A stretch of DNA of 49,031 bases, from NCBI GenBank assembly GCA_005804885.1, contig SYOX01000371.1, positions 1-49,031 on the forward strand, read 5' to 3'. Shown piece by piece: positions 30,956-47,686 of this stretch. This DNA comes from Pseudomonadota bacterium. Lineage in GTDB: Bacteria; Myxococcota_A; Bradymonadia; Bradymonadales; GCA-2716585. How positions within the stretch are numbered: the first letter of the stretch is position 1; every line of letters begins with the position of its first letter. The notes under the pieces are model-generated. The model saw nothing but the letters and a program-made list of their open reading frames with translations, was not told the origin of the DNA and searched no databases. Made by a program: the position numbers and the translations under genes.

Positions 30956-32413
30956 ATGACCCTGTCTTGCTCTCTGCGCCCTCGATCCTTCTGGCTCTCG
31001 ATGCTCCTCGTCGCCTTGCTCCCTGTGCTGTCCTGCTCGGAAGACGAGGACTTCGACGAGGATCTGGCCCGCTTCACCCCGGACGAGGCCCCGGATCCGC
31101 CGGTGGTTCAGGTGCGCTTCGACGACCTGCCCGATGGCACGCTCAAGTTCGACGCCTCAGGACGGCGCTGGACCCGCAACGACCTGACGTGGTGCTTGAA
31201 GGACACGACGCCGGACCTGAGCCGGGCGCAGATCATCGGGGCGCTGGAGGCCGCCGCCGCCGAGTGGTCCCGCGTCACCCCCTTGACCCTGCGGCGCGTC
31301 GACGACTGCCAGGGCGCCAACCTGGAGGTGCGCTTTGGCATCCAGGAGCACGGCGACAACAGCCCCTTCGACGGCCCAGGCCAGACTCTGGCCCACGCCT
31401 ACTTTCCGCAGGACGGCCGAGTCCACTTCGACGACGACGAGACCTGGACCCTCACGCAGCGATCCTCGGGCAGCAACCCCATCGACCTGCAGACCGTCGC
31501 CCTCCATGAGCTGGGGCACGCGCTGGGCCTGCGACACTCCAGCGTCCAGGGCGCCGTCATGCACGCCCTCTACGGCGGCTCGCGGCGCCGCCTGACCCAG
31601 GATGACGTCGACGGCATCCAGAGCATCTACGGGGCCTCCAGCGTCAACCCCGATCCCAATCCCCTCCCGCCCGGCGACGACCACGGCGACTCCCCCGCGA
31701 CCGCCACCCTCGTGGCGACGCCCTCATCCACGCCAGGGAACATCGCCCTGGCCAACGACGTCGACGTCTTCCGCTTCGAGGCCCCCCGAGGCGGCGAGGC
31801 CGTCATCCAGAGCCAAGGCGAGATCGACACGCTGTGCGAGCTTCGCGATCGCGCCAACGCGCTCATCAAGAAGGACGACGACGGCGGAGGAGGCCGAAAC
31901 TGCCGCATCGCCGCAACCCTGACGCCCGGCGAGCACTTCGTCCAGGTCCGCCACTACAGCGCCACCGGCATCGGCCCCTATATCCTCGACCTGGCCCTCA
32001 CCGCCCCCCCTGAGCCCGATCCTCAACCAGACCCTCAGCCCGAGCCCGAACCCCAACCCGACGCCCAGCCAGACCCTCAGCCCGAACCGGAGCAGGAGCC
32101 GGACCCCCAACCAGACCCCCAACCCGATCCGCAGCCTGAGCCCGCGCCCGATCGCGACGGCGACGGCGTCCCCAACACCCAGGACAGGTGCAGGGAGACG
32201 CCGCGCGGGGCCTCGGCCTGGCAAGAGGGGCAATGGCGCGGCTGCTCCGGCGGGCAGCGGGTCAACCCCGAGCCCGAGTACGACACCGACGGCGACGGCG
32301 TCCCCGACACCGAGGATCAGTGCAGCGGCACGGCCCCCGGCGCCACCGTATGGCGCGAGGGCGTCTACAAGGGCTGCGCCGGCGGTCAGATCCGCGACAG
32401 AGATCGACGGTAG
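30956..32413 (+). CDS. secreted matrixin-family (M10) zinc metalloprotease lipoprotein with a P/Q/E/D-rich linker and thrombospondin type-3-like Ca-binding repeats
   Basis: Lipoprotein signal (LLVALLPVLSC). HELGHALGLRHS zincin motif plus Met-turn (AVMHALY). Linker (PEPDPQPDPQPEPEPQPD)n. DRDGDGVPNTQDRC and DTDGDGVPDTEDQC repeats. Confidence 0.8.
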   Translation: MTLSCSLRPRSFWLSMLLVALLPVLSCSEDEDFDEDLARFTPDEAPDPPVVQVRFDDLPDGTLKFDASGRRWTRNDLTWCLKDTTPDLSRAQIIGALEAAAAEWSRVTPLTLRRVDDCQGANLEVRFGIQEHGDNSPFDGPGQTLAHAYFPQDGRVHFDDDETWTLTQRSSGSNPIDLQTVALHELGHALGLRHSSVQGAVMHALYGGSRRRLTQDDVDGIQSIYGASSVNPDPNPLPPGDDHGDSPATATLVATPSSTPGNIALANDVDVFRFEAPRGGEAVIQSQGEIDTLCELRDRANALIKKDDDGGGGRNCRIAATLTPGEHFVQVRHYSATGIGPYILDLALTAPPEPDPQPDPQPEPEPQPDAQPDPQPEPEQEPDPQPDPQPDPQPEPAPDRDGDGVPNTQDRCRETPRGASAWQEGQWRGCSGGQRVNPEPEYDTDGDGVPDTEDQCSGTAPGATVWREGVYKGCAGGQIRDRDRR

Positions 32414-32497: not shown

Positions 32498-35400
32498 TCA
32501 GGGTTGGAGCCTGATGAGGCCGAGCCAGGTGGCGCCCATCTCGCCGCGCTCGGGGCCGGGCTGCTCGCTGAAGGGGGCGCCGATGAAGAGGCCTGGCAGG
32601 CCGGGGCTGTCGAGGCCGATCTCGCCGCCCGCGACGGCGGCGCCGAAGCGGCCGTCGGGGAAGTTGCGCTCGCCGGCGATGATCACGTCGGCCTGGGAGA
32701 GCAGGTCGAGGTCGTCGCTGCCGAGGAAGACGAAGGCGGCGCCGGTGGGCAGATCGACGCCCGGGCGAGAGAGCTGTGCGCCGACGATGAGATCCTCGAA
32801 GCCGTCTTGATCGATGTCCCCGAGGGAGTTCATCGCCACGCCGAAGTTCTGGTTGACGTTGCCGGTGGGGTCCAGGAGCGCGCCGAGCAGGAGCGAGGTG
32901 TTGAGGTCGAGGGTCGTGTCGGAGCGCAGGCCCGAGAGCGCGTCGCGCAGGCGCTGGCCGCTGTAGACCATCACGGCGGCGAGGTTGGTCGGGCCGACGC
33001 CGGTCGAGCCGACCGCGAGATCCTTGATGCCGTCGCCGTCCACGTCGGCCATCGCGAGGCTGTAGCCCAGGTTGTCGTTGGCCAGCTCGCCCAGCAGCGT
33101 GATCTTGACGGGCGACACGGGGCAGCCGGGCCCCCCCCAGCCCAGCCACGCGAAGACCGCGCCGACGTTGTCTCGGCCAGGGACGTCGTGGTTGTAGGCG
33201 CCCGAGAGCATGTCGTCGCAGCCGTCGTCGTTGAGATCGCCGACGGCCTGGGAGAGCCCCAGGAAGTCCGAGCCGACGACGCCCTCTCCGAGCAGGTTGA
33301 CGTCGTGGTTGACGCAGACGCGCGCGATGCTGCCCGCCGAGGGCACGCCCAGCGCGTAATAGAGGCGCCCCCGGTTCCCGTTCCAGTTCCAGTCGGCCAT
33401 CATGAGGTCGCCGAAGCCGTCGCCGTTGAGGTCGAAGCCGCCCTCGATGGTCCGGGCGGCGCGGGCGTTGACGACGGAGGGGCCGCAGACGATGGCGTCG
33501 GGCTCGCCCATGCGGGGGATCTCGGAGAGGGGGCCGAGGTGTCGGGCGCCGAAGTCGGCGCCGCCGAAGTAGACGAAGACCGCGCCGACGTCGTTGACGT
33601 TCGCGTTGTTGATCCGACAGGGGGTGCAAAGGCCGCCGAGGTCTTCGAAGGGGGCGCCGACGGCCACGTCGTCGATGCCGTCGCCGTTGAAGTCGCCGGC
33701 GTTGGAGACGCCGAAGCCGAAGAAGTCGGAGCCGTTGTGGTTGGTGTGGTCGGCCAGGAGCAGATCGGGGGTGGCGCGCAGGCCGTCGGGGCCGCCGAAG
33801 TGGATGAAGGCGGCGCCAGCGTTCTGGTGCATCAGCGCGCCCCATTGCTGTGGCTCGTCGCGATCCCAGTCGGGTGCGCCGACGATGAAGTCGAGGAAGC
33901 CGTCGGCGTTGAGGTCGCCGGCGGCGTCGACGGACGAGCCGATGAGCTCGTCGTTTTCGGCGACGGGGGCGTCGAGGGGGCGAAGCTCGGCGAAGGAGAA
34001 GTCGGGCGAGGCGCTGGGCCACCAGTAGAGCCTCCCGAGGTGCTCGCGGGTGTCCGTGATGTCGCGGGCGGGGCCGCGGGGGGCGTGGACGAGGAGATCG
34101 CGGCGCTGGTCGCCGTCCAGGTCGCCGACGAGGGCGAGGGTGGCGCCGAAGAAGTCGCCATTGCGGTAGACCTCGTTGGGCATGATCCGGGCCTGGGACA
34201 GGTGGGCCTCGGCGCCTTGATCGCCGAGGCAGCCCTGGGGCGAGATCAGTCCGCGGAAGAGGCGGACCTCGCCGACGTCGGCGACGGTGCCCTCGTGCTC
34301 TGCGACGCGGGCGCCTGAGATCAGGTCGTCGATCCCGTCGCCGTCGATGTCCCCGGCGGAGACGTCCCATCCGAAGTTGTCGGAGTTCTCGCCGTAGAGG
34401 ACGAGGTCGGCGTCCAGGCGCTCAAGGCGCGCGGCTCGGTCGGGGTGCCAGTCGGGGTCGCCGAAGAAGACGTTGACGGAGCCGGCGGCGGTGTTGGAGC
34501 CGCCTGCGACGGCGCCGGTGCTCTGAGAGACGACCAGATCGGGGACGCAGTCGCCGTTGAAGTCGCCGACGGTCGTGTCCCAGCCCAGCAAGCCAGCGCG
34601 GACTCTGTCTTGGGGCGATGGGGCGAGGGCGAGGGCGGGCCGAGGGTCAAGGACGCAGCCGGAGGGGTGGTTCGCGCTGGCGGTCGAGACGTAGAGGTTG
34701 GCGAAGCCGTGGGAGGCGTCTGCGCGCGGGGTTCCGACGAGGAGGTCGTCGCAGCCGTCGCCGTTGAGGTCGGCGGAGGTCATGGCGTAGCCGAATTCGC
34801 TGTTGGGGCTGGCCTGCGGGGTCAGGTCCTGGGCGAGCGTCGCGCCGTCGATGATGAGGAAGGGCGCGTCGTCGAGGCCGCGCTCGGCGCGGTTGAGGAA
34901 GACGAGGATCTGGCCGATGTTGACCATCGGCGCGCCGGTCTGAGGGTCGATGAAGGCGGGGGACTCGGCCATGGGGGCGGCGACGGCGAGGTCGTCGTTG
35001 CCGTCGCCGTCGAAGTCGCCGGTGGCCAGTTCGAAGCCGAAGCGGTCGCCGCCGGCGCGCCCGGCGAGGCGCTTGAGCGGGCGCGTGGGGGCTGCCTCGG
35101 GCGCTTCGCCGAGGTTGTCCGTGAGCCTTTCGTACCAGGGCTCGCGCTCGGGGCTGGACTGGGCGCATCCGGCGTGGATCTGGACCTCGCCCTGGCTGAA
35201 GGCGGGGGTGTACGCGCCGAAGACGCCGATGGCGATGTCCTGGCAGCCGTCGCGGTCGAAGTCGCCTGCGGCGAGGCCGCGGCCCATGAAGGCCGAGCGC
35301 AGCGCGCCGATGAAGGTCTGGGCGGGCTGGACGCCGAGGCCCGGTCCCTGGGGCGTGTCCTGGCCGCCGAGGTAGAGGAAGGCCGCGCCGGCGTTCTGGC

Positions 35401-36670
35401 CGTTGAGGCCGCTGGCGCGGACGCCCACGAGCACGTCGGGGTGGCCGTCGCCGTTGACGTCGCCCGCGTCGATGATCTTGTTGTCGTCGCTGTGCTGGCC
35501 GTAGCGGTTGTGGAGGTAGTCGCCGCGGGCGATCACCGTGACGGCGGCGTCGGCGATGAAGCCGTCGAGCAGCTCGTCGACCACCCGCAAGGTCACCACG
35601 CCGCTGCGCGCCCCGGCGCGCACGAGGCGCTCGCGCGGCCCCGAGCCCTCCTCGACCGTGGCGCCGATCCCGTCTGGATCGACGATCCCGACGCGGAAGT
35701 GGCCCGATCCTCCCTCCAGGCGCATCGGAAAGGACTCCCCGGCGGGCAGCACCAGCGCGCTGGTGCTCAGGACGATGGGCCTGGCCTGCGCCACGACCCT
35801 CACCTCCGCCCTGACCCGCTGCCCCGTCGCCTGATCCACCGCCCTGACGACGTCCTCGCCGGGCAGCACGCCGGCCGTGTAGCAGCCGCGCGCGTCCACC
35901 TCGGCCTGATCGCCCGATCCGGCCTGGAGCATGTCCCAGGTGAAGGGAGATGGCTCGGCGCGCGGGTCGCCGCTGCCGCCGTCGACGCGAAAGCAGACGA
36001 TGGTGCCGGGGGTGACCTCCGCCTCGGCGGGCGTCAGCGTGAAGGGCCTGAAGACCGAGATGGTGACCTTGAGCGTGCGCTCGCAGGCCACGTCGGTGAC
36101 GTTGATCTCGTCGGCGACGTCGAAGACCTGACCCGAGAGGTAGAAGCCGCTGTCCGAATCGAGGATGCCGCCGCTGCGGTTCTGGACCCAGTCCCACTGG
36201 CGCTGGCCGCTGCCGCCGCGCGCCGCGATCTCCACCGAGGTCAGCGGCAGCACCGCCATGCGCTCGACCTCCAGTTCGAAGGTGTCGCAGCCGTCGTCGA
36301 TCTCCGGCTCCTCATCCTCTGGATCGGCGTCCGGGGGGACGTCTTCGACGGGGCCAGCGTCCTGACCCTCGGGCTGCGCCTCGGGCTGCTGATCGGGATC
36401 GCCCGAGTCAGGATCGCCCAAGTCGGGATCGCCCGAGTCGGGATCGCCCGAGTCGGGGTCGGCTGGCCCCGCGTCCGGCGCCGAGGGAGGCGGGGTCTCG
36501 GCGGGGGGATCTCCGCAGGCCGCCAGGGCGCAGAGCGCCGCCAGGGCGGCGAGCGTCGCCGACGCCCGGGCCACGAGGGCGAAGCGCCCGACCCCGGCGG
36601 GCTGACCCGGATCGCGAAACATGGCACCAATATTTAATGATTTCATCGTGTTACACGCCATGGCGGCCAT
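32498..36670 (-). CDS. giant FG-GAP/integrin-alpha-repeat lipoprotein (paralog 1, about 1390 aa)
   Basis: Signal/lipobox (LAALAALCALAAC). Acidic Pro-rich low-complexity N-terminus. Ig-like region. Many FG-GAP Ca-binding repeats (GDFDGDGNDDLAV, DLNGDGCDDLLVG, GDFNGDGIDDVAVGAP). The ATG overlaps the upstream paralog's stop (TGATG). Confidence 0.8.
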   Translation of the reverse strand: MAAMACNTMKSLNIGAMFRDPGQPAGVGRFALVARASATLAALAALCALAACGDPPAETPPPSAPDAGPADPDSGDPDSGDPDLGDPDSGDPDQQPEAQPEGQDAGPVEDVPPDADPEDEEPEIDDGCDTFELEVERMAVLPLTSVEIAARGGSGQRQWDWVQNRSGGILDSDSGFYLSGQVFDVADEINVTDVACERTLKVTISVFRPFTLTPAEAEVTPGTIVCFRVDGGSGDPRAEPSPFTWDMLQAGSGDQAEVDARGCYTAGVLPGEDVVRAVDQATGQRVRAEVRVVAQARPIVLSTSALVLPAGESFPMRLEGGSGHFRVGIVDPDGIGATVEEGSGPRERLVRAGARSGVVTLRVVDELLDGFIADAAVTVIARGDYLHNRYGQHSDDNKIIDAGDVNGDGHPDVLVGVRASGLNGQNAGAAFLYLGGQDTPQGPGLGVQPAQTFIGALRSAFMGRGLAAGDFDRDGCQDIAIGVFGAYTPAFSQGEVQIHAGCAQSSPEREPWYERLTDNLGEAPEAAPTRPLKRLAGRAGGDRFGFELATGDFDGDGNDDLAVAAPMAESPAFIDPQTGAPMVNIGQILVFLNRAERGLDDAPFLIIDGATLAQDLTPQASPNSEFGYAMTSADLNGDGCDDLLVGTPRADASHGFANLYVSTASANHPSGCVLDPRPALALAPSPQDRVRAGLLGWDTTVGDFNGDCVPDLVVSQSTGAVAGGSNTAAGSVNVFFGDPDWHPDRAARLERLDADLVLYGENSDNFGWDVSAGDIDGDGIDDLISGARVAEHEGTVADVGEVRLFRGLISPQGCLGDQGAEAHLSQARIMPNEVYRNGDFFGATLALVGDLDGDQRRDLLVHAPRGPARDITDTREHLGRLYWWPSASPDFSFAELRPLDAPVAENDELIGSSVDAAGDLNADGFLDFIVGAPDWDRDEPQQWGALMHQNAGAAFIHFGGPDGLRATPDLLLADHTNHNGSDFFGFGVSNAGDFNGDGIDDVAVGAPFEDLGGLCTPCRINNANVNDVGAVFVYFGGADFGARHLGPLSEIPRMGEPDAIVCGPSVVNARAARTIEGGFDLNGDGFGDLMMADWNWNGNRGRLYYALGVPSAGSIARVCVNHDVNLLGEGVVGSDFLGLSQAVGDLNDDGCDDMLSGAYNHDVPGRDNVGAVFAWLGWGGPGCPVSPVKITLLGELANDNLGYSLAMADVDGDGIKDLAVGSTGVGPTNLAAVMVYSGQRLRDALSGLRSDTTLDLNTSLLLGALLDPTGNVNQNFGVAMNSLGDIDQDGFEDLIVGAQLSRPGVDLPTGAAFVFLGSDDLDLLSQADVIIAGERNFPDGRFGAAVAGGEIGLDSPGLPGLFIGAPFSEQPGPERGEMGATWLGLIRLQP

Positions 36671-39600
36671 CAATCAAGGTCGGGGTTGGCGATGAACACG
36701 GCGCCGACCTCGCCGAAGGCCGCGCCGTCGCGCTCGGCGAAGGGGGCGCCGATGAGCAGGACGGCTGCGCCCCCTGATCGATCGGCGCGCAGCGCCCCTC
36801 CGGCGACGGAGTTGGCGAAGTTGCTGTCGGAGAAGAGCCGCTGGCCGGCGATGACGAGGTCAGGGCGCGAGAGGGCGTCGGGCTCCCGACTGCCGAGGTA
36901 GAGGTAGGCCGCCCCGCTGCGGAGCGTGCCCGAGAGGCTCGACAGCCGCGAGCCTACGAGCAGGTCTGGCAGGCCGTCGCCGTTGACGTCGCCGATGGAC
37001 TCCAGGGCGTAGCCGAAGTTGGTGTTGGCCACGCCCTCGGGATCGATGATCCGGCCGATGACGTGGGCCGGGTCCAGCGACATCGTGGCGTTGGAGGTGA
37101 GGCCGGCCAGATCGCCTTGGAGCTCCGCGCCGCCGAGGATCAAGACGACGCCCTCGTTGGTGGTCCCGAAGCCGGAGGAGGAGACGGCCAGATCGCCGAC
37201 GCCGTCGCCGTTCATGTCGCCGATGGCCGCGACCCGGAAGCCGATGTTGTCGCCCGCCCGCTCGCCGTAGATGTCGATGATGACGGGGTCGACGGGGCAC
37301 CCGACGCCGCCTCGGCCGAGCCGGACGCGCAGCACCCCGGAGTTGGCGGCGGCGGGATCGTCGCTGTTGTAGCCCGAGGCGATCAGATCGTCGCAGCCGT
37401 CGCCGTTGAGGTCTGCGCCCGCGACCCCGTGCCCGACCAGATCCGAGACATTGCTGCCCTCCCCCACAAGGTCGGCCTCGGCCACGCAGATCACCGCCGC
37501 CTGTCCGGGGAAGGCGCGCCCGCGCCCCGACCACGCGATGCCGCGCTGGCCGTTGTAGTTCCAGTTGGAGAAGATCAGGTCGTCAAAGCCGTCGTCGTCG
37601 ATGTCGAAGCCCCCGGCGAGCTCTCGGCCGGCCTGGACGCTGGCGATCTGGGGTCCGCAGAGGGTGAAGTCGGGCGCGTTGAGCTCGATGAGGCCGCTCG
37701 GATCGCGCTGGCCCCTGTCGAAGGCCGGGCCGCCGCGGTAGACGAAGATCGCGCCGGTGTCGCTCAGGAAGGGCCCGCCCGCTCGGCAGGCCGCGCAGGG
37801 GCCGGCGTTGTCCTCGAAGGGCGCCGCGATGGCGATGTCGCCGAAGCCGTCGCCGTCGTAGTCCCCGGCGCCGACCAGAGTGAAGCCGAACTGATCGCTG
37901 CCCGAATGCAGCGCGTGGCGCGCGAAGATCGCGTCCGGCTCGGCGCCGACCCCTTCTGGCCCGCCGAGGTAGAGGAAGACGGCCCCGGCGCTGCCGTTGG
38001 GCTGGACGTAGGTGCCCAGATCGCGGGTCATGTCGTAGAGCGGGGCGGCGGCGGCGAAGTCGTTGAAGCCGTCGGCGTTGAGGTCGCCGACGGCGGCGAC
38101 GCGGGCGCCGTATTGATCGTCGTTCTGGTTGACGACGTGCTCGACGGTCTGGAGCGTGTCGAAGGAGGGGGCGGGCTCCGCGCCAGACTGCCAGTAGAGG
38201 CGCCCGAGGTGGTCGTCGACGTCGTCGGGGTTGAGCGCCCCCCGGGAGGCCAGGACAGCCCAGTCGCCGACGCCGTCGTCGTCGACGTCGCCCAGGACCG
38301 CGACGCGCTGGCCGAAGAAGTCGCCGTTCCCGGCCGGCTCGTTGACGACGAGGGTGGGCGCAGAGAGGAAGGGCCCCTGCTCCACCCCGCCGCACCCCTC
38401 CGGGCTCACGAGGCCCTTGTAGACGCGCACCTCGCCGACGTCGGCGACGGTGCTGGGCTGCTCGCCGAGGCGCACGCCCACGATGATGTCGTCGATCCCG
38501 TCGCCGTCGACGTCGCCGACGCCGAAGGAGGAGCCAAGCTGATCGTTGGCTTCGCCCTCGATGACGAGGTCGGCGCCGGTCTTGAGGAGGGCGATGGGCG
38601 TCAGCGGGCTCCAGGAGGGGTCGCCGAAGAAGACGTTGAGCGCGCCCGCCGCGGTGTTGCCGCCAGCCAGCTCGGCGGCGGTGAACTGGGCGACGACCAG
38701 ATCGGGGACGCAGTCGCCGTTGAAGTCCCCGAAGCCGACCTCATTGCCCATGCGGCTGGCGCGCCTGCGCTCCTCGGTCGCCGGCCAGACGGTGAGCGCG
38801 GGGCTCGTGGACAGGACGCAGCCGCCGGGCCGGCCGCCGTCCTGGATCGAGGTGTAGAGGGAGGCGAAGCCGTGGTTGGCCTGGGCGAACTCCGCGCCGA
38901 CGAGGAGGTCGTCGCAGCCGTCGCCGTTGACGTCGGCGGCGGCGATCCGGGCTCCGAAGTTGAAGGTATTCTCAGTAAACACGCGTCCATCCTCGCCGAT
39001 AGCGACACCATCGATGAAGAGGTCGGGCTGCTCGGGCAGGCCGGCGCCCTGTCGGTTGAGGTAGATGTAGACGCGGCCGATGTCGGTGAAGGGGGTCCCG
39101 GTCTGGGGGTTGACCCTGGCGGTGGCCTCGGCCCTGTAGGCGGAGACGGCCAGGTCGTCGAGGCCGTCGTTGTCGAAGTCCCCGGCGGCCATGGCCCAGC
39201 CGAAGAAGTCGTTGTTGCTCTGGCCGGGCAGGCGCCGCCAGAGGTTCATGGGGACGGTCTGTCGGGGGGGCAGGGGGTTGTCGAGCAGGCGGCCGTTGAA
39301 GTCGATCTGCGCGGCGTCGGGGCCATCGTGGCAGCCCTTGAAGACGCGCACCTCGCCGACGTTGGTCAGGCCGAGGCGCTCGCCGTAGACGCCGATGGCG
39401 ACGTCGCGGCAGCCGTCGTTGTCGAAGTCGCCCGAGGCGATGGAGCGGCCGAGGCTGTTGAAGCGCTGGTTGCCGACGAGGATCTGGGCGGGCTCGGCGC
39501 CGAGGCCGAGGCCCTGGGCGGTGGGCTGGCCGCCGAGGTAGAGGAAGGCCGAGCCGGAGAACTGGCCGTTGATCCCGCCGTTGCGCAGCGCCAGGACGGC

Positions 39601-40833
39601 GTCGGGAAATCCGTCGCCGTTGACGTCGCCGACCCCGGCCAGGTCGGAGTCGTCGGTGTGGGCGCCGTAAGCGGTGGCCGGGTGGAAGCTCGACGCCATG
39701 ACCTCGAAGGGGATCAGGGTGACCACGTCGGCCAGGAAGGCGTCCCGCACCGCGATCTGCCCCTTGCCGGCGCGCGGCCCCGCCACGAAGGCGGCCCCCT
39801 GCTCGTCGGGGTCGACGTCCAGGGCGCTGCCGGTGCCGTTGGGGGCCAGAATCTCGAACAAGAACGCGCCTGTACCGCCCGAGACGCCAAAGGAGAAGGA
39901 CTCTCCGACGGGGATGGCCAGGGCCGGCAAGGTGGCGCTGATCTCGACGGGGCCGTCCGTGACGATGACGGCCACCTGGAGGATCTGCCCGGTGCGGGTG
40001 TCGGTGATCTGGAGGATGTCGACGCCCGCGCGGCGGCCGGACAGGTAGCAGCCGTCGTCGCTGATCGAGGCCGAGTCGCCCTCATTGCCGCGGACGATCT
40101 CCCACAGGAAGGGGGAGTCTGCGCCGTCCTGCGGGCCGCTGCCGCCCTCGACGCTGAAGCACAGCAGCTGCCCGGTGGGGATGGTGGGCTGCGAGGGGGC
40201 GACGGTGGCGCGGCGGACCACGCGGACGCTGGCGGTCAGGCTCAAGGCGCAGCCGGTGTCGATGACCTCCACGGCGTAGTCGCGGTCTTCGGCGGCGCCG
40301 GCCAGGAAGATGCCGGTGTCGGGGTTGACGCTGGCGCCGTCGGGGTTGTCGGCCAGGGCGAAGGTGTAGAGGCCGCTGCCCCCGTTGGCCTCGATGCGGA
40401 CGGTCCGCAGCGGGAGGCTGAAGTGCTCGACCTCGCTCAAGGCGAAGGAGTCGCAGTCGTAGATCGGGGCCTCGGGCTCCGGCGGCGCAGGCTCGGGCTC
40501 GGGGGGCTCGGGTTCGGGCTGGCCTTCGAGGGCGTCGGGCTCATCGGCGACGTCGGGCTGATCGGCGGCGTCGGGCTCATCGGCGGCGTCTTGATCATCG
40601 AGGGCGTCGGGCTGATCGGCGGCGTCGGGCTCACCGGCGTCGTCGGTCGCGTTGCCGTCGGGCTCATCGGCGGCGTCGGGGTCGTCGATGGGATCGACGG
40701 CGGGCGAGCGCAGGTCCTCGGCGCAGGCCAGCAGCGCGAGCAGCGGGAGCAGCGCGGCGGCCCTGAGGATCGCGGCGATCGCGACGGTGAGGGGGTCGTC
40801 GGCGGCAGATCGGGGCGCGGGGAGAGGGCGCAT
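36670..40833 (-). CDS. giant FG-GAP/integrin-alpha-repeat lipoprotein (paralog 2, about 1387 aa)
   Basis: Lipoprotein signal (LLPLLALLAC). Same architecture as its paralog, colinear with it: GDFDNDGCRDVAIG, GDFDNDGLDDLAVSA, DVNGDGCDDLLVGA, GDVDGDGIDDIIVG. Confidence 0.8.
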   Translation of the reverse strand: MRPLPAPRSAADDPLTVAIAAILRAAALLPLLALLACAEDLRSPAVDPIDDPDAADEPDGNATDDAGEPDAADQPDALDDQDAADEPDAADQPDVADEPDALEGQPEPEPPEPEPAPPEPEAPIYDCDSFALSEVEHFSLPLRTVRIEANGGSGLYTFALADNPDGASVNPDTGIFLAGAAEDRDYAVEVIDTGCALSLTASVRVVRRATVAPSQPTIPTGQLLCFSVEGGSGPQDGADSPFLWEIVRGNEGDSASISDDGCYLSGRRAGVDILQITDTRTGQILQVAVIVTDGPVEISATLPALAIPVGESFSFGVSGGTGAFLFEILAPNGTGSALDVDPDEQGAAFVAGPRAGKGQIAVRDAFLADVVTLIPFEVMASSFHPATAYGAHTDDSDLAGVGDVNGDGFPDAVLALRNGGINGQFSGSAFLYLGGQPTAQGLGLGAEPAQILVGNQRFNSLGRSIASGDFDNDGCRDVAIGVYGERLGLTNVGEVRVFKGCHDGPDAAQIDFNGRLLDNPLPPRQTVPMNLWRRLPGQSNNDFFGWAMAAGDFDNDGLDDLAVSAYRAEATARVNPQTGTPFTDIGRVYIYLNRQGAGLPEQPDLFIDGVAIGEDGRVFTENTFNFGARIAAADVNGDGCDDLLVGAEFAQANHGFASLYTSIQDGGRPGGCVLSTSPALTVWPATEERRRASRMGNEVGFGDFNGDCVPDLVVAQFTAAELAGGNTAAGALNVFFGDPSWSPLTPIALLKTGADLVIEGEANDQLGSSFGVGDVDGDGIDDIIVGVRLGEQPSTVADVGEVRVYKGLVSPEGCGGVEQGPFLSAPTLVVNEPAGNGDFFGQRVAVLGDVDDDGVGDWAVLASRGALNPDDVDDHLGRLYWQSGAEPAPSFDTLQTVEHVVNQNDDQYGARVAAVGDLNADGFNDFAAAAPLYDMTRDLGTYVQPNGSAGAVFLYLGGPEGVGAEPDAIFARHALHSGSDQFGFTLVGAGDYDGDGFGDIAIAAPFEDNAGPCAACRAGGPFLSDTGAIFVYRGGPAFDRGQRDPSGLIELNAPDFTLCGPQIASVQAGRELAGGFDIDDDGFDDLIFSNWNYNGQRGIAWSGRGRAFPGQAAVICVAEADLVGEGSNVSDLVGHGVAGADLNGDGCDDLIASGYNSDDPAAANSGVLRVRLGRGGVGCPVDPVIIDIYGERAGDNIGFRVAAIGDMNGDGVGDLAVSSSGFGTTNEGVVLILGGAELQGDLAGLTSNATMSLDPAHVIGRIIDPEGVANTNFGYALESIGDVNGDGLPDLLVGSRLSSLSGTLRSGAAYLYLGSREPDALSRPDLVIAGQRLFSDSNFANSVAGGALRADRSGGAAVLLIGAPFAERDGAAFGEVGAVFIANPDLD

Positions 40834-40858
40834 GGGCTTGTCCTGGGCGAGCTTTCCG

Positions 40859-42235
40859 TCAGGTGGCGAGGGCGGGGATGTAGCGGACGTCGCGGCCGAG
40901 GACGGAGCCGTCGAGGCCGGCGTTGGCCATGATCGAGCCGAGGATGTCCTCGGGGCGGATCTCCTGGCCGAGCGGATCGACGAGGCCGGTGCGGAGGTTG
41001 ACGGCCTGCGCGAGCATGCCCTGGTCGGAGGAGGCGCCGACGACCTTGCCGTGGGGGACGCCGGCGCCCCAGAGCAGGACGGTGCCGACGGGGTGGTGGT
41101 CGCGGCCGTCGCGGGAGTTGAGCAGGGGGGTGCGGGAGAACTCGCTGAAGGCCACGACGGTGGTGTGGTCGAGCCAGCTCTTGCCGGAGCCGTCGGGGTA
41201 GGGGCTGTCCTTGAGGGACTGGATGATGAGGTCGACGACCTCGAAGCCGGACTGCTGGATGGCGGGCTGATTGACGGCCCAGTCGTCGAAGTGGGTGTCG
41301 AGGCCGCCGGTGACGCGCAGCGAGACGCAGGTGCTGATCTGCTCGGTGATGGCCTGGACGGCGAGCATCCCGATGGCCTGGGGGGAGTTGAGGTTGAGGC
41401 CCTGGGGGAAGGTCAGGCGCTGGTCGAGGCGAGCGGCCAGTACGGCCTCGGCCTGGATCTCGCTGGCGCGGGCGCGGCGCAGGGCGTCGGGCATGCGATC
41501 GAGGGTCAGGCCGAAGTCATCGGGGCGGTGGAGGTAATCGGCGATGAGGCGGTCTTCGACCTCGGAGTAGCCCAGGTCGGGGCGTCGCAGAGTGTCGAGC
41601 AGGTCGGTGACGCTGGAGATCTTCAGCCCGGAGGCGGCCGAGGGGTGCCGGTCGTTGTAGGACTCGACGGCGTAGGCCAGGTTGGGCACGAAGGGCATCT
41701 GCTCGGGGGCGCCCTCGGCGTGGAGCTGCGCGGCGATCTCGGTGGGGACCGAGGCGCCGCGGGCCAGCAGGCCGCTGGGCATGCGCCCGGTGAGCAGGTA
41801 CCTGCGGCCGACCTCGTGGGTGACGGTGTTCATGTTGACGCCGCGGACCGCGCACAGCTCGCGGCGGTGGCGCCAGACGGGGGCGGCGGCGGGGCCGAGG
41901 GCGAGGTTGAGGGTGGGGTCAAAGTGGAGGCCGTTGCCCTCGGTGCCGCCGCGGGACCAGGCGGCCGGCAGGCGGCCGTAGGCGGGCTGGATGAGGGTCT
42001 GGCCGCGGGCCTCGTCGGTGAAGATCGCCGGGTCGCGGGGATCGGCGCCCAGCAGCGCGTCCCAGCCGCCGTCGAAGTAGCAGAAGATGAAGCGGCGGCG
42101 GTGATCGGGGGCGCCCGGTTGCAGCGGGGAGGCGGCCAGCAGGTGCCCGAGGTGACCCATGGAGAGGCCGCCGACGGCGGCGGCGCCGGAGGTCATCAGC
42201 ATCGCCTGCAGGAAGTCGCGTCGTGTCCAGCGCAT
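40859..42235 (-). CDS. Tat-secreted DUF1501-domain (sulfatase-like) protein
   Basis: Twin-arginine signal MRWTRRDFLQAMLMTSGAAAVG. DUF1501 core (FIFCYFDGGWD..., GRDHH). This family is typically partnered with PSCyt/DUF1549/DUF1553 or DUF1800 proteins. Confidence 0.85.
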   Translation of the reverse strand: MRWTRRDFLQAMLMTSGAAAVGGLSMGHLGHLLAASPLQPGAPDHRRRFIFCYFDGGWDALLGADPRDPAIFTDEARGQTLIQPAYGRLPAAWSRGGTEGNGLHFDPTLNLALGPAAAPVWRHRRELCAVRGVNMNTVTHEVGRRYLLTGRMPSGLLARGASVPTEIAAQLHAEGAPEQMPFVPNLAYAVESYNDRHPSAASGLKISSVTDLLDTLRRPDLGYSEVEDRLIADYLHRPDDFGLTLDRMPDALRRARASEIQAEAVLAARLDQRLTFPQGLNLNSPQAIGMLAVQAITEQISTCVSLRVTGGLDTHFDDWAVNQPAIQQSGFEVVDLIIQSLKDSPYPDGSGKSWLDHTTVVAFSEFSRTPLLNSRDGRDHHPVGTVLLWGAGVPHGKVVGASSDQGMLAQAVNLRTGLVDPLGQEIRPEDILGSIMANAGLDGSVLGRDVRYIPALAT

Positions 42236-42284
42236 GGCTCATAGCTCCTGCGCGGCCTCTGGGGTGGCCGCGTCGTCCTGAGGG

Positions 42285-43019
42285 TCAGTAGAGGTAGAAC
42301 TCCGGGGAGCTCATCAGGCCGACGCACACCGCCCTCCAGCCCTTGGCGGGGCTGCCGGTGGCGTGCGAGGCGGAGCGGAAGAGCCAGCGCAGACGCGAGA
42401 GGCCCTCAGGGTCATCGAGGTCGACGTTGTGGCCGGTGATGCGGAGCTTCATCGCCCGCAGGTTCCGGTCGATGGCCTGGCGCCCGGCCTCGTCGGCCGC
42501 CTCCCAGGTCAGCGTCGGGTCGACGTGGCGGATCATGATCCGGTCGTCGGGGTGCATGTCGAGGTCGTCCTGGATGGCCTCGTCGCAGACCGCGCGGACG
42601 CCGTCGCCGAGGAACTTCTGGAAGACCAGCGAGGCGTCCAGGTCCTCGTTGGTGGTGTCGATGTAGTTGGGCACGCCGAGGGTGGGGGCCAGCCTGTCGA
42701 GCTGATCGCGGCCCTGGGCGTCGTGCCAGGTCAGCCCGCCGGTCGCGACCCGGATGGCCGCCTGGAGCTGCGCGACGCTCATGCGGCGCAGGTTGCGGCT
42801 CGTCGCATTCGGGGTCGGGGTCAGGTCCACGTCCCCTGCCGAGGCCCGCTCGCCCTCCAGGGCGGTGTGGTCCGAGGGCGGCGCAAGCCCGGCCAGCGGC
42901 GCAAGCGTTGGTGATTGTTCAGGATCTTGAGGAAGAAGGGCCTCCTCGGTGCGATCCTCCGAGGCGCAGGCGACGAGCGCGCCGAGCGCCAGTGCAATGG
43001 TCCAGAGCCTCGCGCTCAT
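42285..43019 (-). CDS. hypothetical lipoprotein (244 aa)
   Basis: Internal ATG giving MSARLWTIALALGALVAC (lipobox). The start overlaps the upstream gene's stop by ATGA. Confidence 0.6.
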   Translation of the reverse strand: MSARLWTIALALGALVACASEDRTEEALLPQDPEQSPTLAPLAGLAPPSDHTALEGERASAGDVDLTPTPNATSRNLRRMSVAQLQAAIRVATGGLTWHDAQGRDQLDRLAPTLGVPNYIDTTNEDLDASLVFQKFLGDGVRAVCDEAIQDDLDMHPDDRIMIRHVDPTLTWEAADEAGRQAIDRNLRAMKLRITGHNVDLDDPEGLSRLRWLFRSASHATGSPAKGWRAVCVGLMSSPEFYLY

Positions 43020-44719
43020 CGGATCCTCCTGTAGGCCGGGTGGGTGACGATGGCCTTGACCAGCGCTTTGATGTTGTAGTCGCTCTGGACGAAGCGCCGG
43101 GTGAGATCCAGGCGCGCGTCGGTGTCGGCCTTGCTGGCCGTCAGGGGGCGGCGCATGAGGTGCTGCCACATCTTCGAGACGGTGGCGCTGGCCAGCGAGC
43201 CATCCTGAATGGAGCGCTCGACCCAGAGGCGAGGGCCGTAGGTGGCGTTGATCTGGTGCTGCTCGCCGAGGAACTCGTAGCCGCGCAGCACCCCGAGGTA
43301 GGGCTCGCGATCGGCGGGGACGATGGAGACGACGTACTCATTGCGGCAGTAGGCCGGGCAGGTGCCGATGCCGGAGCGGGCGCAGTCCTCGCACACCTCG
43401 TCGTAGATGGGGAAGGCGGACTCGGCCAGGTAGCCGCCGCCCTGCTGTCGCCAGCGCGCCCAGTGGGCGGCCCAGGGCTCGACGGCGTTGTGGCACTTCT
43501 GGCAGCCGCAGACCTTGGTCAGGTCGGCGCTGTCGGTCTTGCAGTCGGGGCTGTCGGTGCCCTGGGCGGCGTCGAAGTGGCTGTCCAGAAAGGCGTTGTA
43601 GAAGCGGTTGACGCGACCCCGGTTGGTCTGGAAGCGCAGCAGGAAGGCGTAGGACGTCAAGATCCCCGAGTGCTCCTCACCCTGAAGCACGGGCAGCCAG
43701 GTCTGGTCGTCGGTCCAGGCCAGGTCGGGCAGGAAGACCGGGTCGACGGGCGCCGGATCGAGGTTGACGTTGGTGGCCAGCGCCATCTGGTGCTTGTAGT
43801 AGTGGACCAGGGGGCCGTTGATGAAGCTCATCCGGGTGGTGAGGATCTCGTGGTAGGGCTTGTCGCCCTCGATGACCCACTCGATGAGCTTGATCATCTG
43901 CTCGCCGAGCGCGAGCCCCACCTGAAGCTGGACGTCGATCCCGTCACCGCGGAAGTCGCAGTAGCGCATGTTCGGCCCGCAGCCGCAGGTCGTCTCTCGC
44001 TGCGACGCCATCGTCCCGCAGCCGACGCCGCCGCTCTCGCTGCGCTCGGCCTCCTGGGCGTCAAAGGCGCACACCTTGATCTCGGTCTCGGGCGCCCAGA
44101 AGGGCTCGACCCAGACCCAGCCCTCCAGGCAGCGGCCCGTCTCCCGATCGCACTCGACCTCGATCCGCCCCTGGGCGTCGAAGGTCGCCGGGCGGTTGTG
44201 GCAGGGGATCGCGTCGTTCTCGTCGTCGCCGAGGCCGCCTCGGTAGTAGACCCCCTTGCGGCGCAGGTAGTGGACGGTGTGGCGGTCGTTGGGCGGCCCG
44301 ACCGCGACCCGCGTCAGATCCCATTGGAACTGGATGTACTGAATATTGCTGACGTTTGCCCAGAGCAGATCGCGGTGGTAGGTCCGCATCCCCTCCAGGA
44401 ACTCCTCCGAGGCGAGCATCGCGTCGATGGCCTCCTCGGGCACGTCGGGCAGGCCGTCGAGCGCCTCGTACTGCTCCAGGGTCGGCGGCGCGCCCGTCAG
44501 GTCGAGCGAGAGGCGCTTGAGGGTGGCGTACCTGTCCAGCGAGGACTCGCGGGCCATGTCCATCGCGGTCCCGGAGGCGTCCTGGGCTTCGGCGCGCGAG
44601 GGCAGCGGGGCCTGGAGGGCCGCCAGCGTCAAGAGGGCTGCGGTCAGCGCCAGCCCTGGCGCGGCGCGGCGCCCGGATCTGCGGCCTGCGGCATCGGCTC
44701 TTCTGGTCAGTCTCTCCAT
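43016..44719 (-). CDS. secreted Cys-rich protein with a CxxCH (c-type heme-binding-like) motif
   Basis: Signal peptide (AAPGLALTAALLTLAALQAPLPSRAEA). More than 20 Cys, including VCGCQKCHNAVEPW (CxxCH). Internal ATG (MERLTRR...) chosen over the Arg/Ser-rich ORF-track N-terminus. Confidence 0.65.
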   Translation of the reverse strand: MERLTRRADAAGRRSGRRAAPGLALTAALLTLAALQAPLPSRAEAQDASGTAMDMARESSLDRYATLKRLSLDLTGAPPTLEQYEALDGLPDVPEEAIDAMLASEEFLEGMRTYHRDLLWANVSNIQYIQFQWDLTRVAVGPPNDRHTVHYLRRKGVYYRGGLGDDENDAIPCHNRPATFDAQGRIEVECDRETGRCLEGWVWVEPFWAPETEIKVCAFDAQEAERSESGGVGCGTMASQRETTCGCGPNMRYCDFRGDGIDVQLQVGLALGEQMIKLIEWVIEGDKPYHEILTTRMSFINGPLVHYYKHQMALATNVNLDPAPVDPVFLPDLAWTDDQTWLPVLQGEEHSGILTSYAFLLRFQTNRGRVNRFYNAFLDSHFDAAQGTDSPDCKTDSADLTKVCGCQKCHNAVEPWAAHWARWRQQGGGYLAESAFPIYDEVCEDCARSGIGTCPAYCRNEYVVSIVPADREPYLGVLRGYEFLGEQHQINATYGPRLWVERSIQDGSLASATVSKMWQHLMRRPLTASKADTDARLDLTRRFVQSDYNIKALVKAIVTHPAYRRIR

Positions 44720-44756
44720 CTCACGCCCTCCTGGGTCGCCGAGGCGACCGCCCTGC

Positions 44757-46493
44757 TCATCTGAGTAAACCGTCTTCCCGCCACCACCGCAAGAGCAGCA
44801 GCTCGGCCTCGGAGGGCCTGGCCCCGTTGGGGGGCATCGTCCCTGGCTGTCCGGCCTCGATGGCCGTGCGGGTGATGATGTTGTCGATCTTCTCGACCCA
44901 GCTCTCATAGGTGTCTGGCTTGAAGCCGCCCACGTGACAGCTTGAACGGGCGCAGTAGCGCCCGTAGATCGGCTCGACGTGCTCGTCCCAGGTGATCGTC
45001 TCCGGCCTGGCCGTCCAATCAAAGGGGACATCGAGGCGCGTGTCGGGCAGCGGCTCGCGGTAATCCACCTCGATGCGAAGGGCGTGGGCGCCCGGCGAGA
45101 GGCAGTCGGACCAGAGCGCGCCGCCGCCGCCGACGAGGTAGGGCTCCTGGTCCATCGCGGCGGGCTGGCAGTCGTCGACCTGGACGCGGAGCTGCTCGAC
45201 CTGATCGGGGAGGGTCGGGAAGACCTGGAGATCTGGCATGGAGTCGAGGGCCTGGCCGGCCTCGAGGCCGACGAGCGTCACCGGGGGGGTCTCGAAGGCG
45301 TGCGAGAGGCTGCCGGCCCGCGTGATCCAGGCGCCGCCCTGGTTCGAGGGGGCGATGGCGACCACGTCGCTGACCGGGCCGACGAGGGCGGCCTCCCACT
45401 GCTGGCCGTCCAGGGTTCTGTAGAGGCCCTGGGTCGTGTGCAGCCAGACGGCGCCGTCGGCGGCGACGGTCACGCCGAGGGCCTCGCGGCCCTCGGGCAG
45501 GGCCCAGCGGGCCCAGCGCGCGCCGCCGAGGACGGGGCCTGGGCGTCGGGAGAAGAGGTGCTGGCGCGTGGCGGTCCAGACGACCCCGGCGCGATCGGCG
45601 CCCAGCGCGATCAGCGGCCCGCCGAAGTCGACGTCGATGGCGAAGGCCGCCACCGTCGCCCCCTCGGGCCGCAGGGCGAAGAGGCGCTGGCCGTAGGTGA
45701 CCCAGATCGACTGGCCGAGCGGATCCTCCAGATCCGGCCCCAGGGTCATGTGATCGACCGCGGCGTCGAGTTCGACGCCGCCGCCGGGGCCGACGCGGAA
45801 GACCTCCTGGCCCTGGATGACGAAGAGTCCCTTGTCGCTGGCGCACCACAGGCCGAGTCGGCCGTCGGGGTCAAAGACGCGCTCGACGAGCATGGCGTGG
45901 ACGAGGCCGTCGACGATCGAGGACAAGGGCGAGGGCCACAGGAAGCCCTCGCTGCGGTAGAGGAGGCCGAGGTCGGTGGAGATCAGCAGGCCCTCGTCGT
46001 CGTCGAGGGTCGCGGCGGCCAGCGCCGTGCCGAGGGGCGCGGTCGGGTCCCAGCCGGCCAGCAGGGGGCGCAGGAGGCCGTCGCGGCCGACGCCGAAGAT
46101 GGCGCCGCCGGCGCTGACGTGGCCGTGGATGGGGCTGGCGCCGAGGGTCAGGAGCGGCGAGTCGCCGTCGAGGCCCTCGGGCAGCGGCACGATCTCGCGC
46201 AGCAGCTCGACCCTCGAGCCGATCTCCAGCAGCCGGTCCTCGATCAAGGGCGGCGCGACCTCGAAGGGCTCGTCGGGGTCTGGCAGGATGTTGGAAGAAT
46301 CGGGCGTCTCGTCGTCCCCATTTCCGTCGGGGTCGGCGTCGGGGCCGGCGTCGGAGCCGGCGTCGGGGGGCTGGGCTGGAGGGTCGAGGCCGCCCTCGTC
46401 CCCGCACCCCGCCCCGAGGCCGCCCAGGAGCGCCGCGAGCAGGAGGGAGCAGGCTCGCCTCGCAAGAAGGGGGTTGTTCTGGGCCTCGCTCAT
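44757..46493 (-). CDS. beta-propeller-like lipoprotein with a C-terminal PSCyt-like (Planctomycete-type cytochrome c-like) domain
   Basis: Lipobox (LLLAALLGGLGAGC). Repeated G-hydrophobic blade-like segments. C-terminal YCARSSCHVGGFKPDTYESWV...GTMPPNGARPSEAELLLLRWWREDG matches the ...CH..GG...MPP...S..E..LL..W..G signature of PSCyt domains, here with a CX4CH variant. Confidence 0.6.
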   Translation of the reverse strand: MSEAQNNPLLARRACSLLLAALLGGLGAGCGDEGGLDPPAQPPDAGSDAGPDADPDGNGDDETPDSSNILPDPDEPFEVAPPLIEDRLLEIGSRVELLREIVPLPEGLDGDSPLLTLGASPIHGHVSAGGAIFGVGRDGLLRPLLAGWDPTAPLGTALAAATLDDDEGLLISTDLGLLYRSEGFLWPSPLSSIVDGLVHAMLVERVFDPDGRLGLWCASDKGLFVIQGQEVFRVGPGGGVELDAAVDHMTLGPDLEDPLGQSIWVTYGQRLFALRPEGATVAAFAIDVDFGGPLIALGADRAGVVWTATRQHLFSRRPGPVLGGARWARWALPEGREALGVTVAADGAVWLHTTQGLYRTLDGQQWEAALVGPVSDVVAIAPSNQGGAWITRAGSLSHAFETPPVTLVGLEAGQALDSMPDLQVFPTLPDQVEQLRVQVDDCQPAAMDQEPYLVGGGGALWSDCLSPGAHALRIEVDYREPLPDTRLDVPFDWTARPETITWDEHVEPIYGRYCARSSCHVGGFKPDTYESWVEKIDNIITRTAIEAGQPGTMPPNGARPSEAELLLLRWWREDGLLR

Positions 46494-46675: not shown

Positions 46676-47686
46676 ATGAGGGATCATGGCGGGCATGGCG
46701 AGGGGGATCTGGCGATCAAGTATCGCGTGAGGGAGGCGGCGACGCGGCTCTCGGTGGACGCCTTCCTGCACGGGCTCAGCCGGGCGGGGTGGCACGCGCC
46801 GACGGGGAGGCGGCGGCGCGAGGGGATCGAGATCATCCGGGACGTGGCCTACCGCGAGACGGGGATGTCGGCGCACCGGATGGACGTCTTCCGGCGTGAG
46901 GGGCTCGAGGGGCCGGCGCCCGTGGTGATCTACATCCACGGCGGTGGCTTCGCGGTCTGCTCGAAGGACACGCACTGGTCGCTGGCGCTGCCCTTCGCGC
47001 GGCGGGGCTACGTGGTCTTCAACATCAATTATCGGCTGGCGCCGCACCACAAGCACCCGGCGGCCTTCCACGACGCCTGCGCGGCGCTGCTGTGGGTCCA
47101 GCGCCACGGCCACCGCTTCGGCGCCGATCCGAGCCGGATCGCGGTGGCCGGAGAGTCGGCGGGGGGCAACCTGGCTGCGGGGCTGGCGGTGGCCTCCAGC
47201 TACCGCTTCGAGGCCCAGCCCTGGGCCAGCGCCGTCTACGAGGCCGAGCACCGCATCCGGGCCGCGATCGTGGCCTGCGCGGTCCTCCAGGTCAGCGACA
47301 GCGCCCGCTTCCAGCGCCGACGGCCGCAGCGGCCGGACTGGCAGCGGCGCGTGCTCGGCGCCATGGAGCGGGCCTACATGCCCGCAGCTGCTCAAGGATC
47401 GACCCCCTTCGCTGACCCGCTGCTGGTCCTGGAAGGCCGCGCCCCTGATCGCCCCCTGCCGCCCTTCTTCACCTTCGTCGGCACGCGCGACTTCCTGCTC
47501 CACGACAGCCGCCGGCTCAAGGCGGCGCTGGACCGGCGCGGGGTCCCCTGCGACCTGCACATCTACCCGGACGAGATCCACGGCTTCCACGCCATGCCCT
47601 GGCGGCCGTCCGCCCACCGATGCTGGTCGCTCCAGCACGACTTCCTGCAGCGCCACATGCTTCCCGCCGCGCCCCCGGAGGTGTAA
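46676..47686 (+). CDS. alpha/beta hydrolase, HSL-family esterase/lipase
   Basis: Oxyanion-hole HGGGF. Nucleophile elbow GESAGG. Catalytic His near the C-terminus (EIHGFH). Confidence 0.8.
   Translation: MRDHGGHGEGDLAIKYRVREAATRLSVDAFLHGLSRAGWHAPTGRRRREGIEIIRDVAYRETGMSAHRMDVFRREGLEGPAPVVIYIHGGGFAVCSKDTHWSLALPFARRGYVVFNINYRLAPHHKHPAAFHDACAALLWVQRHGHRFGADPSRIAVAGESAGGNLAAGLAVASSYRFEAQPWASAVYEAEHRIRAAIVACAVLQVSDSARFQRRRPQRPDWQRRVLGAMERAYMPAAAQGSTPFADPLLVLEGRAPDRPLPPFFTFVGTRDFLLHDSRRLKAALDRRGVPCDLHIYPDEIHGFHAMPWRPSAHRCWSLQHDFLQRHMLPAAPPEV

Follow-up and report, generated by a model that had tools for sequence, protein, structure and literature searches.

What kind of system, if any, is formed by six neighbouring genes on one strand that all encode exported proteins? 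The question is raised by a run of genes on the minus strand (32498–46493) of contig SYOX01000371.1, assembly GCA_005804885.1, which GTDB places in the Bradymonadales (Myxococcota_A). "The window" is here the whole stretch analysed, 49,031 nucleotides long. In 5′ to 3′ order, the genes A to F encode a predicted propeller-cytochrome lipoprotein (A), a Cys-rich partner protein of the PSCyt2/PSD type (B), a small predicted lipoprotein (C), a DUF1501 protein (D) and two giant FG-GAP proteins (E and F), whose counterparts at other loci we call G. Our main result, which is well supported, is that G and A-B-C-D make up a conserved myxobacterial cell-envelope set of five families. It is a counterpart of the modules of DUF1501 and planctomycete cytochrome/PSD proteins known from the Planctomycetes–Verrucomicrobia–Chlamydiae (PVC) bacteria.

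The gene order carries this result. Homologs of B (~520 aa) number in the hundreds, and nearly all come from metagenome-assembled genomes (MAGs) of Myxococcota. Scanning 185,579 species, each represented by one genome, gave 297 relatives, and the best 80 of the 297 loci were taken with 10-kb flanks. Open reading frames (ORFs) were called at 90 loci, 82 of them unique, and the six window proteins served as queries; for A, whose conservation is weak, an iterated profile was needed. All synteny counts have as denominator the loci with enough flanking sequence. The order B-C-D was nearly fixed, with C after B in 76/77 loci and D after C in 68/68. A lay immediately upstream of B in 54 of 69 loci, and the giant FG-GAP gene adjoined the module in 47 of 60. 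Synteny, whose absence from all relatives a first-pass annotation of this sequence had named as the outcome that would speak against a common system, is strongly conserved. Identity across the loci was ~35–40% for B and D, 33–43% for C, ~20–26% for A and ~28% for G.

The position of the FG-GAP gene varied. At 46 of the 47 loci it was found upstream of A on the opposite strand, the two 5′ ends being typically 50–400 bp apart. A position downstream of D on the same strand was seen exclusively in the clade of the window (54–70% identity in B), with one copy at locus L013 and two copies in the window and at locus L012. The adjacency was therefore kept despite inversion relative to A-D. The FG-GAP gene is a conserved neighbour, divergent upstream of A in most genomes, and not an obligatory member of an operon. 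Counted over the loci, A and G occurred together at 42, were both missing at seven, and occurred alone at six (A) and five (G).

Nearly all of the 82 unique loci were labelled Myxococcota or myxobacterial, with some MAGs labelled differently, and the carriers found so far are all uncultured MAGs. A genome has few copies of the module; the most seen in one MAG was three loci. B-C-D alone, without A or the FG-GAP gene, was seen for example at loci L068, L069, L076, L078, L087 and L089. Several MAGs with such a reduced locus, among them JACKDP, CAUJDF, JBKAGE and CAZJHX, have a full locus at another place. All-against-all clustering of the flanking ORFs revealed no further neighbour conserved in more than 11/82 loci, so the unit consists of exactly five families. 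The flanking families that did recur (Ser/Thr kinase, response regulator, histidine kinase, VWA, CotH and several without a Pfam match) were dropped as generic and abundant.

In the window, six long ORFs were found between 32498 and 46655. An exact-sequence look-up of B identified a public contig identical to this one (ENA ERZ27257034 k141_423356; NCBI GCA_005777485.1 and GCA_005800485.1), whose independent gene calls had the same coordinates for genes A–F. The junctions were a 37-nt gap between A and B, an ATGA overlap between B and C (43016–43019), gaps of 49 nt between C and D and of 25 nt between D and E, and a TGATG between E and F, in which the start codon of F overlaps the stop codon of E by one base at 36670. 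The start of F was corrected to this ATG from a TTG at 36673. The tight same-strand cluster of the first-pass annotation was reproduced in both sets of calls, and its claim that every product has an export leader also held, with Sec, lipobox or Tat signals read in the sequences of A–F. A, C, E and F are predicted bacterial lipoproteins, with the lipoboxes LGAGC, LVAC, LLAC and LAAC, respectively. A crude regular expression recovered a lipobox in 38/62 relatives of A, 53/77 of C and 28/56 of G. A promoter/terminator scan, uninformative overall, gave no minus-strand terminator-like hairpin inside the cluster, and Rfam found no RNA families in the window. Because the FG-GAP gene has here moved downstream of D and been duplicated, all six genes probably form one transcript; we infer the co-transcription of the FG-GAP genes from the 25-nt gap alone.

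The DUF1501 assignment of D was clear (PF07394, 60.6 bits against a cut-off of 27, residues 115–410), and homologs scored 74–93 bits. Its leader, MRWTRRDFL, carries a twin-arginine motif in which R5 and R6 are invariant or nearly so in homologs, and the RR motif was present in 73/75 relatives. With such a leader, D would leave the cytoplasm already folded. The Tat profile TIGR01409 matched D weakly (15.5 bits vs a cut-off of 16.7). The PSCyt/PSD-type partner gene of D is B, two genes upstream, and the order B-C-D was kept in 68/68 loci.

Searching the PDB with the sequence of D and with its profile returned noise only, with no solved structure matched. An AlphaFold model of D based on 40 homologs (pLDDT 87.4, pTM 0.86) had the core alpha/beta fold of the alkaline phosphatase superfamily. 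In the Foldseek search, sulfatases ranked first, and further hits were LtaS, EptA/MCR-1 and BcsG, the lipid-binding PbgA/YejM domains and one uncharacterised protein. The characterised enzymes among these structural neighbours were all phospho-/sulfo-ester hydrolases, transferases or mutases.

The invariant residues of D (Table 1) appear in the model to sit at the strand ends where the superfamily places its metal ligands and nucleophile. At the putative nucleophile position, T137 and H140 were invariant, and T139 was conserved in only 30–36/40 homologs. H140 follows its strand after a five-residue loop and opens the stretch H-E-V-G-R-R-Y-L-L-T-G-R-M-P, with 11 residues from H140 to G150. We take this spacing to match the sulfatase motif C-x-P-x-R-x-x-L-L-T-G-R-x-P and the motif T-F-P-N-H-Y-x-x-V-T-G of the nucleotide pyrophosphatases/phosphodiesterases (NPPs). 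On loop length and on the spacing to the LLTG motif, the invariant H140 would hold the nucleophile position. The DUF1552 profile "HXXSHH" matched the same putative active-site stretch in many D homologs, at ~27–33 bits.

Protein B has a Sec-type signal ending SRA/EAQ. It matched PSCyt2/DUF1549 (PF07583) with 31.9 bits vs 29.8, over profile positions 14–84 of 209, and a PSCyt2 match was present in 31/31 B homologs, at some below the cut-off. By these scores, membership of B in PSCyt2 appears marginal and partial. PSD1/DUF1553 (PF07587; 18.7 vs 28.5 bits) and PSD2/DUF1585 (PF07624; 17.8 vs 25.8 bits) stayed below their gathering scores in the window protein. Several B homologs passed the PSD2 gathering score with 27–29 bits. 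A relationship of B to PSD1 and PSD2 is plausible, with the window protein outside formal membership. B also had a weak PSD4 match.

Pfam searches with family members gave a domain order for B. A PSCyt2-like N-terminus is followed by the end of a PSD4 match at ~225–275 and by a PSCyt3-like stretch at ~310–405, which reaches up to a CxxCH motif. At the C-terminus there were PSD2, PSD1 and DUF1800-like matches, like the other B domains mostly below gathering scores. Given this series of PSCyt2-, PSD4-, PSCyt3- and PSD2-like matches, mostly below gathering scores, we regard B as related to the planctomycete PSCyt/PSD proteins, in a compact and divergent form. In an alignment of 31 homologs, 12 Cys were invariant, those of the CxxCH included. 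The motif itself was kept in 31/31 aligned homologs and in 79/79 full-length homologs at the loci, including the B-C-D-only paralogs. The PSCyt-type assignment made in the first-pass annotation is upheld.

For protein A of the window, no Pfam or NCBIfam match was found even at E=10. Its family was more informative. Among 45 members, Pfam recognized Cytochrome_CBB3 in 36, Big_7 in 13, PccH in 11, Reg_prop in four and PSCyt1 in one. The family profile matched propellers in the PDB, namely the PknD sensor (3e-10), the Reg_prop sensors of hybrid two-component systems (HTCS; 6e-10 to 4e-6) and designed propellers (down to 2e-20, in multiple stretches). Its C-terminus matched class-I cytochromes c in the PDB. 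The early description of A as a PSCyt-like propeller thus stands for the family, by its profiles and by the Pfam matches of relatives, but not for the window protein taken by itself, which has no Pfam match.

Across 45 A homologs, C514, C519, H520, P554 and W571 were invariant and M553 was nearly so. Most homologs had a canonical CxxCH followed by GxMP. A CxxxxCH was limited to the clade of the window, in the window itself and at loci L011, L012 and L014 (CARSSCH, CALNGCH, CARPGCH and CARQGCH). The clade with this CX4CH motif is also the clade in which the FG-GAP gene is relocated downstream of D. Attachment of heme to A is predicted from the motif. The DUF1501 partner, proposed earlier to be split over two proteins, indeed appears so: A has the cytochrome c domain (PSCyt1-like) behind a propeller, and B has the PSCyt2/PSD-like parts with the invariant CxxCH.

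Protein C, a small predicted lipoprotein specific to this lineage, had no Pfam or NCBIfam match even at E=10, no significant family in a scan of 40 members and no PDB match by profile. A search of its profile against 1.84 billion representatives gave 650 clusters at 50% identity, of which the best 150 were all stand-alone proteins of 160–380 aa. Conserved in the family were the motifs RRRMDxDQL, TLGKPDY, LFQKFLxDAARxVC and WRAVCVGLxTHPDFYxY, two invariant Cys and, at 90%, the lipobox Cys. The ending SPEFYLY had suggested a split-off PSD4/PSD5-like piece. This candidate was rejected, as PSD5 matched in 1/40 members only (E=0.16) and hhalign found no homology between C and B.

The claim of two FG-GAP lipoproteins of ~1390 aa agreed with their lengths, with their lipoboxes and with Pfam, in which FG-GAP (PF01839) scored 199 bits on E and 230 bits on F, in nine stretches each. 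The two proteins are 43% identical over 1344 residues. Each has 13 DxDxDG-type Ca motifs, ~65–85 residues apart (residues 403–1290 in E). The lipobox is followed by an acidic Pro-rich linker, a domain region of ~260 aa (residues ~125–390 in E) and then the blade motifs, a layout from which E and F probably have two seven-bladed Ca-binding propellers each. G proteins of other loci align with E from end to end, including the region N-terminal to the propellers, at ~28% identity; they are therefore orthologs of E and not random FG-GAP proteins.

Table 1 Genes A–F of the window and the residues discussed in the text.
Feature	Position	Strand	Description
Gene A	44757-46493	-	578 aa; lipoprotein (predicted): acidic linker, beta-propeller, Ig-like domain, C-terminal cytochrome c domain
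Gene B	43016-44719	-	567 aa; Sec-exported Cys-rich partner protein of PSCyt2/PSD type
Gene C	42285-43019	-	244 aa; small lipoprotein (predicted): disordered linker and ~170-aa domain without Pfam match
Gene D	40859-42235	-	458 aa; Tat-exported DUF1501 protein, presumed catalytic subunit
Gene E	36670-40833	-	1387 aa; giant FG-GAP lipoprotein (predicted)
Gene F	32498-36670	-	1390 aa; paralog of E
Cytochrome c domain of A, residues 496-578	44760-45008	-	from family profile and conserved residues
Heme motif of A, C514-ARSS-C519-H520 (CX4CH)	44934-44954	-	read from sequence, coordinates checked
CxxCH of B, C406-QK-C409-H410	43490-43504	-	end of PSCyt3-like stretch
Twin-arginine motif of D, W-T-R-R-D-F-L	42209-42229	-	read from sequence (leader MRWTRRDFL)
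D59 of D	42059-42061	-	invariant, putative metal ligand; end of strand 48-56
T137-V-T139-H140 of D	41816-41827	-	loop/helix start at superfamily nucleophile position, between strand 127-134 and helix 140-149 (model)
D313/H315 of D	41291-41299	-	invariant, putative metal ligands; end of strand 301-312
D379/H380 of D	41096-41101	-	invariant, putative metal ligands; at strand 378-381

Taken as a whole, the set is best explained as a metalloesterase complex of the cell envelope that captures its ligand with propellers. We give this explanation an even chance, its identity part being much firmer than its mechanism. The soluble pair of B and D would be the catalytic core; DUF1501 and DUF1552 proteins are reported to pair with PSD1-, PSD2- or DUF1800-like partners in PVC bacteria and Proteobacteria. 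The lipoproteins C and A would hold this core at a membrane. An extracytoplasmic ligand, probably an anionic polymer, would be captured by the sensor-type propeller of A together with those of the FG-GAP type in G, and a pre-loaded metal centre of D would cleave or transfer a phospho-/sulfo-ester-type group. The predicted covalent hemes of A and B would tune the activity to the redox state or relay electrons. As the first-pass annotation had suggested, the system may be located at the cell surface and may depend on redox state or Ca, judging from leaders and motifs.

Several observations weigh against the metalloesterase complex. The invariant His that would hold the nucleophile position of D is not what hydrolases of this superfamily usually have there, and it would suit a non-hydrolytic metal site just as well. 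The neighbouring T139 was considered as nucleophile and is weakened as a candidate by Ala in 8/40 homologs. The formylglycine motif of sulfatases (C/S-x-P-x-R) is not in D, where the equivalent stretch H140-E-V-G-R144 lacks Cys, Ser and Pro, so that D is no canonical sulfatase despite the Foldseek ranking. The model of B matches no cytochrome fold, and its heme binding is predicted from the motif. Of the loci with room for these genes, 13/60 lack G and 15/69 lack A, and the B-C-D-only paralog loci exist, which makes A and G accessory. In most genomes, G is moreover a separate, divergent transcription unit.

Some of these observations would suit a redox enzyme, with a non-hydrolytic, redox-active metal centre in D that exchanges electrons with the hemes of B and A and propellers that hold the substrate. 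Loading of the metal centre in the cytoplasm would then account for the Tat export of D. An alternative form would be a cycle of oxidation followed by hydrolysis as in the Sox system, in which cytochromes work together with a binuclear hydrolase exported by Tat. A redox enzyme agrees with heme motifs that are absolutely conserved in A (45/45) and B (79/79), with the Tat leader throughout the D family and with the invariant His140 next to a dispensable Thr, and electron transport was also the speculation of Kamneva et al. 2012 for the PVC module (PMC3542564). We nevertheless consider a redox enzyme unlikely. The characterised structural neighbours of D all act on phospho- or sulfo-esters, no redox enzyme was among the alkaline-phosphatase-superfamily matches found, B has no cytochrome-like fold, and the B-C-D-only loci do without the cytochrome of A. 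The fully specified version, in which D is a redox-coupled metalloenzyme with His in place of a covalent nucleophile, wired to the hemes of B and A and shown its ligand by the FG-GAP propellers, seems improbable to us. To our knowledge, redox-dependent chemistry would then be a first for the alkaline phosphatase superfamily. If true, it would also give a first function to the DUF1501/PSCyt/PSD families of Planctomycetes, Verrucomicrobia and Myxococcota.

The constancy of the FG-GAP gene could also mean that the integrin-like giants are clients, adhesins that A-B-C-D modifies, tethers or regulates, for example by transfer of a phospho-alcohol group, a reaction that membrane-bound transferases of the alkaline phosphatase superfamily carry out on other polymers of the envelope. 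G stays next to the module in 47/60 loci, even after rearrangement, its orthologs keep one architecture, and the periplasmic transferases LtaS, EptA/MCR-1 and BcsG are among the structural matches of D. However, D is soluble and has no membrane domain such as the known transferases have, 13/60 loci have B-C-D without G, and no FG-GAP partner is reported for the PVC or proteobacterial DUF1501/PSCyt modules in the literature examined. Maturation or anchoring of adhesins is therefore, in our view, rather doubtful. A chance juxtaposition of unrelated genes for exported proteins is effectively refuted: large myxobacterial genomes are presumed to be rich in FG-GAP proteins and in exported proteins without assigned function, a prior expectation only, but at 82 loci these five families come back in one order, with no other flanking family conserved.

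The remainder of the window looks like ordinary chromosome rather than a mobile element. Two housekeeping-type genes, at 21766–23418 (+) and 25204–27891 (+), encode a formate-tetrahydrofolate ligase (772 bits) and a beta-CASP/metallo-beta-lactamase RNase-J-like protein. Divergently upstream of A there were an alpha/beta-hydrolase (Abhydrolase_3/COesterase) at 46676–47686 (+) and a Zn-dependent alcohol dehydrogenase-family gene at 47789–48787 (+). A similar dehydrogenase-family gene was upstream of A at locus L009, and the pair of hydrolase and dehydrogenase was not conserved elsewhere. The gene convergent with F, at 30740–32413 (+), encodes a secreted metalloprotease of the matrixin type (Peptidase_M10, 164.6 bits); the protein has an acidic linker of PEPQ repeats and one weak stretch of thrombospondin type-3 repeat (TSP_3), and it is not kept beside the module at other loci. 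Exact-sequence look-ups of this protein and of D found no record.

At 3554–6382 (+), a 942-aa ORF matched MVP_shoulder (73 bits, 2.3e-20) and Vault_3 (28.6 bits), domains of the major vault protein of eukaryotes. As far as we know, it is unusual for a bacterial MAG, here one of Myxococcota, to carry a vault-protein-like gene. Two long ORFs at 3557–7954 (-) and 8045–11650 (-) had no Pfam match. At ~6000–12000, the GC skew fell to -0.30, with a positive AT skew over ~6 kb.

In Planctomycetes and Verrucomicrobia, DUF1501 and the PSCyt/PSD proteins paired with it belong to the most expanded families without assigned function; the genome of Rhodopirellula baltica has 41 copies each of PSCyt2 and PSD1 (PMC2754498). 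As the first-pass annotation had maintained, the literature searched (2009–2026) gave no functional assignment for DUF1501, PSCyt or PSD, nor for DUF1549, DUF1553, DUF1552 and DUF1800. The myxobacterial version is simpler, with few copies per genome, a fixed order and an FG-GAP giant as a fixed extra partner. With the cytochrome, PSD and enzyme parts on separate polypeptides, it is therefore a cleaner system for probing the function of the module. It further defines the Pfam-less family C (~650 clusters at 50% identity) and points to an unusual His active site.

A module of this kind, which combines an enzyme with cytochromes, has been known for twenty years in other bacteria. As a rule, DUF1501 goes together with partners of the PSCyt/PSD or DUF1800 type (PMC3542564, PMC5615132, PMC5122149). 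A PVC cluster of four genes encodes DUF1501, a signal-peptide protein with weak PPC signals, a PSCyt1/Big_2/PSCyt2/PSD1 protein and a PSCyt1/WD40 protein (Kamneva et al. 2012, PMC3542564). Given this precedent, the kind of module is already known and not new. The myxobacterial set shares with the PVC module a Tat-signal DUF1501 protein and an exported PSCyt2/PSD-type protein with CxxCH, and in the four-gene form D, C, B and A parallel the DUF1501, signal-peptide, PSCyt/PSD and PSCyt1/WD40 propeller proteins. It differs in B, which is compact (~520–570 aa), lacks PSCyt1 and contains an insert rich in Cys; in its C-terminal half it is closer to PSD4-PSCyt3-PSD2 than to a full PSD1, with most Pfam scores below the cut-offs. 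Further differences are a protein C without detectable Pfam relation, the FG-GAP giant lipoprotein as conserved neighbour and hosts labelled mostly Myxococcota. In the clade of the window there are, in addition, the CX4CH heme motif of A and the relocation and duplication of G.

The pairs of DUF1552 (HXXSHH) with DUF1585/1587/1588/1592/1595 (PSD2-5/PSCyt3) proteins in Planctomycetes and Verrucomicrobia (PMC5615132) are a second relative. B has weak PSD4, PSCyt3 and PSD2 matches in the same order, and many D homologs match HXXSHH over the putative active site. In contrast to these pairs, D is clearly DUF1501 (60–93 bits, vs ~27–33 for HXXSHH), and the N-terminus of B is PSCyt2-like, as in the other pair type. 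With a DUF1501 D and a B that joins a PSCyt2-like head to a PSD4-PSCyt3-PSD2-like body, the myxobacterial module looks intermediate between the two PVC pair types. The DUF1800 + DUF1501 operons of Proteobacteria, some of them linked to chitin-synthase genes (PMC5122149), likewise combine a Tat DUF1501 protein with a helical partner, and one B homolog was weakly DUF1800-like at its C-terminal helices. Unlike the module described here, they lack a CxxCH or cytochrome domain, and neither a propeller protein nor an FG-GAP protein accompanies them. For the phycobilisome linker domain (ApcE/LCM, CpcC/G), both signals were below significance; we regard them as a lead that the helical module of the PSD2/PSD1/DUF1800 type may be a protein-docking domain and claim no membership.

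Single proteins can also be set beside better characterised ones. D is only 9–16% identical to members of the alkaline phosphatase superfamily (Xac NPP, ENPP4/6/7, S1 sulfatases) and has no formylglycine motif. It has an invariant His where NPPs have a Thr nucleophile and sulfatases a formylglycine, and it always stands beside a PSCyt/PSD partner. E and F share with the propellers of integrin alpha the repeated FG-GAP blades with DxDxDG Ca-binding loops. They differ from integrin alpha as predicted bacterial lipoproteins with 13–14 blades, a region of ~260 aa and an acidic linker, and with neither a transmembrane segment nor a beta-subunit partner.

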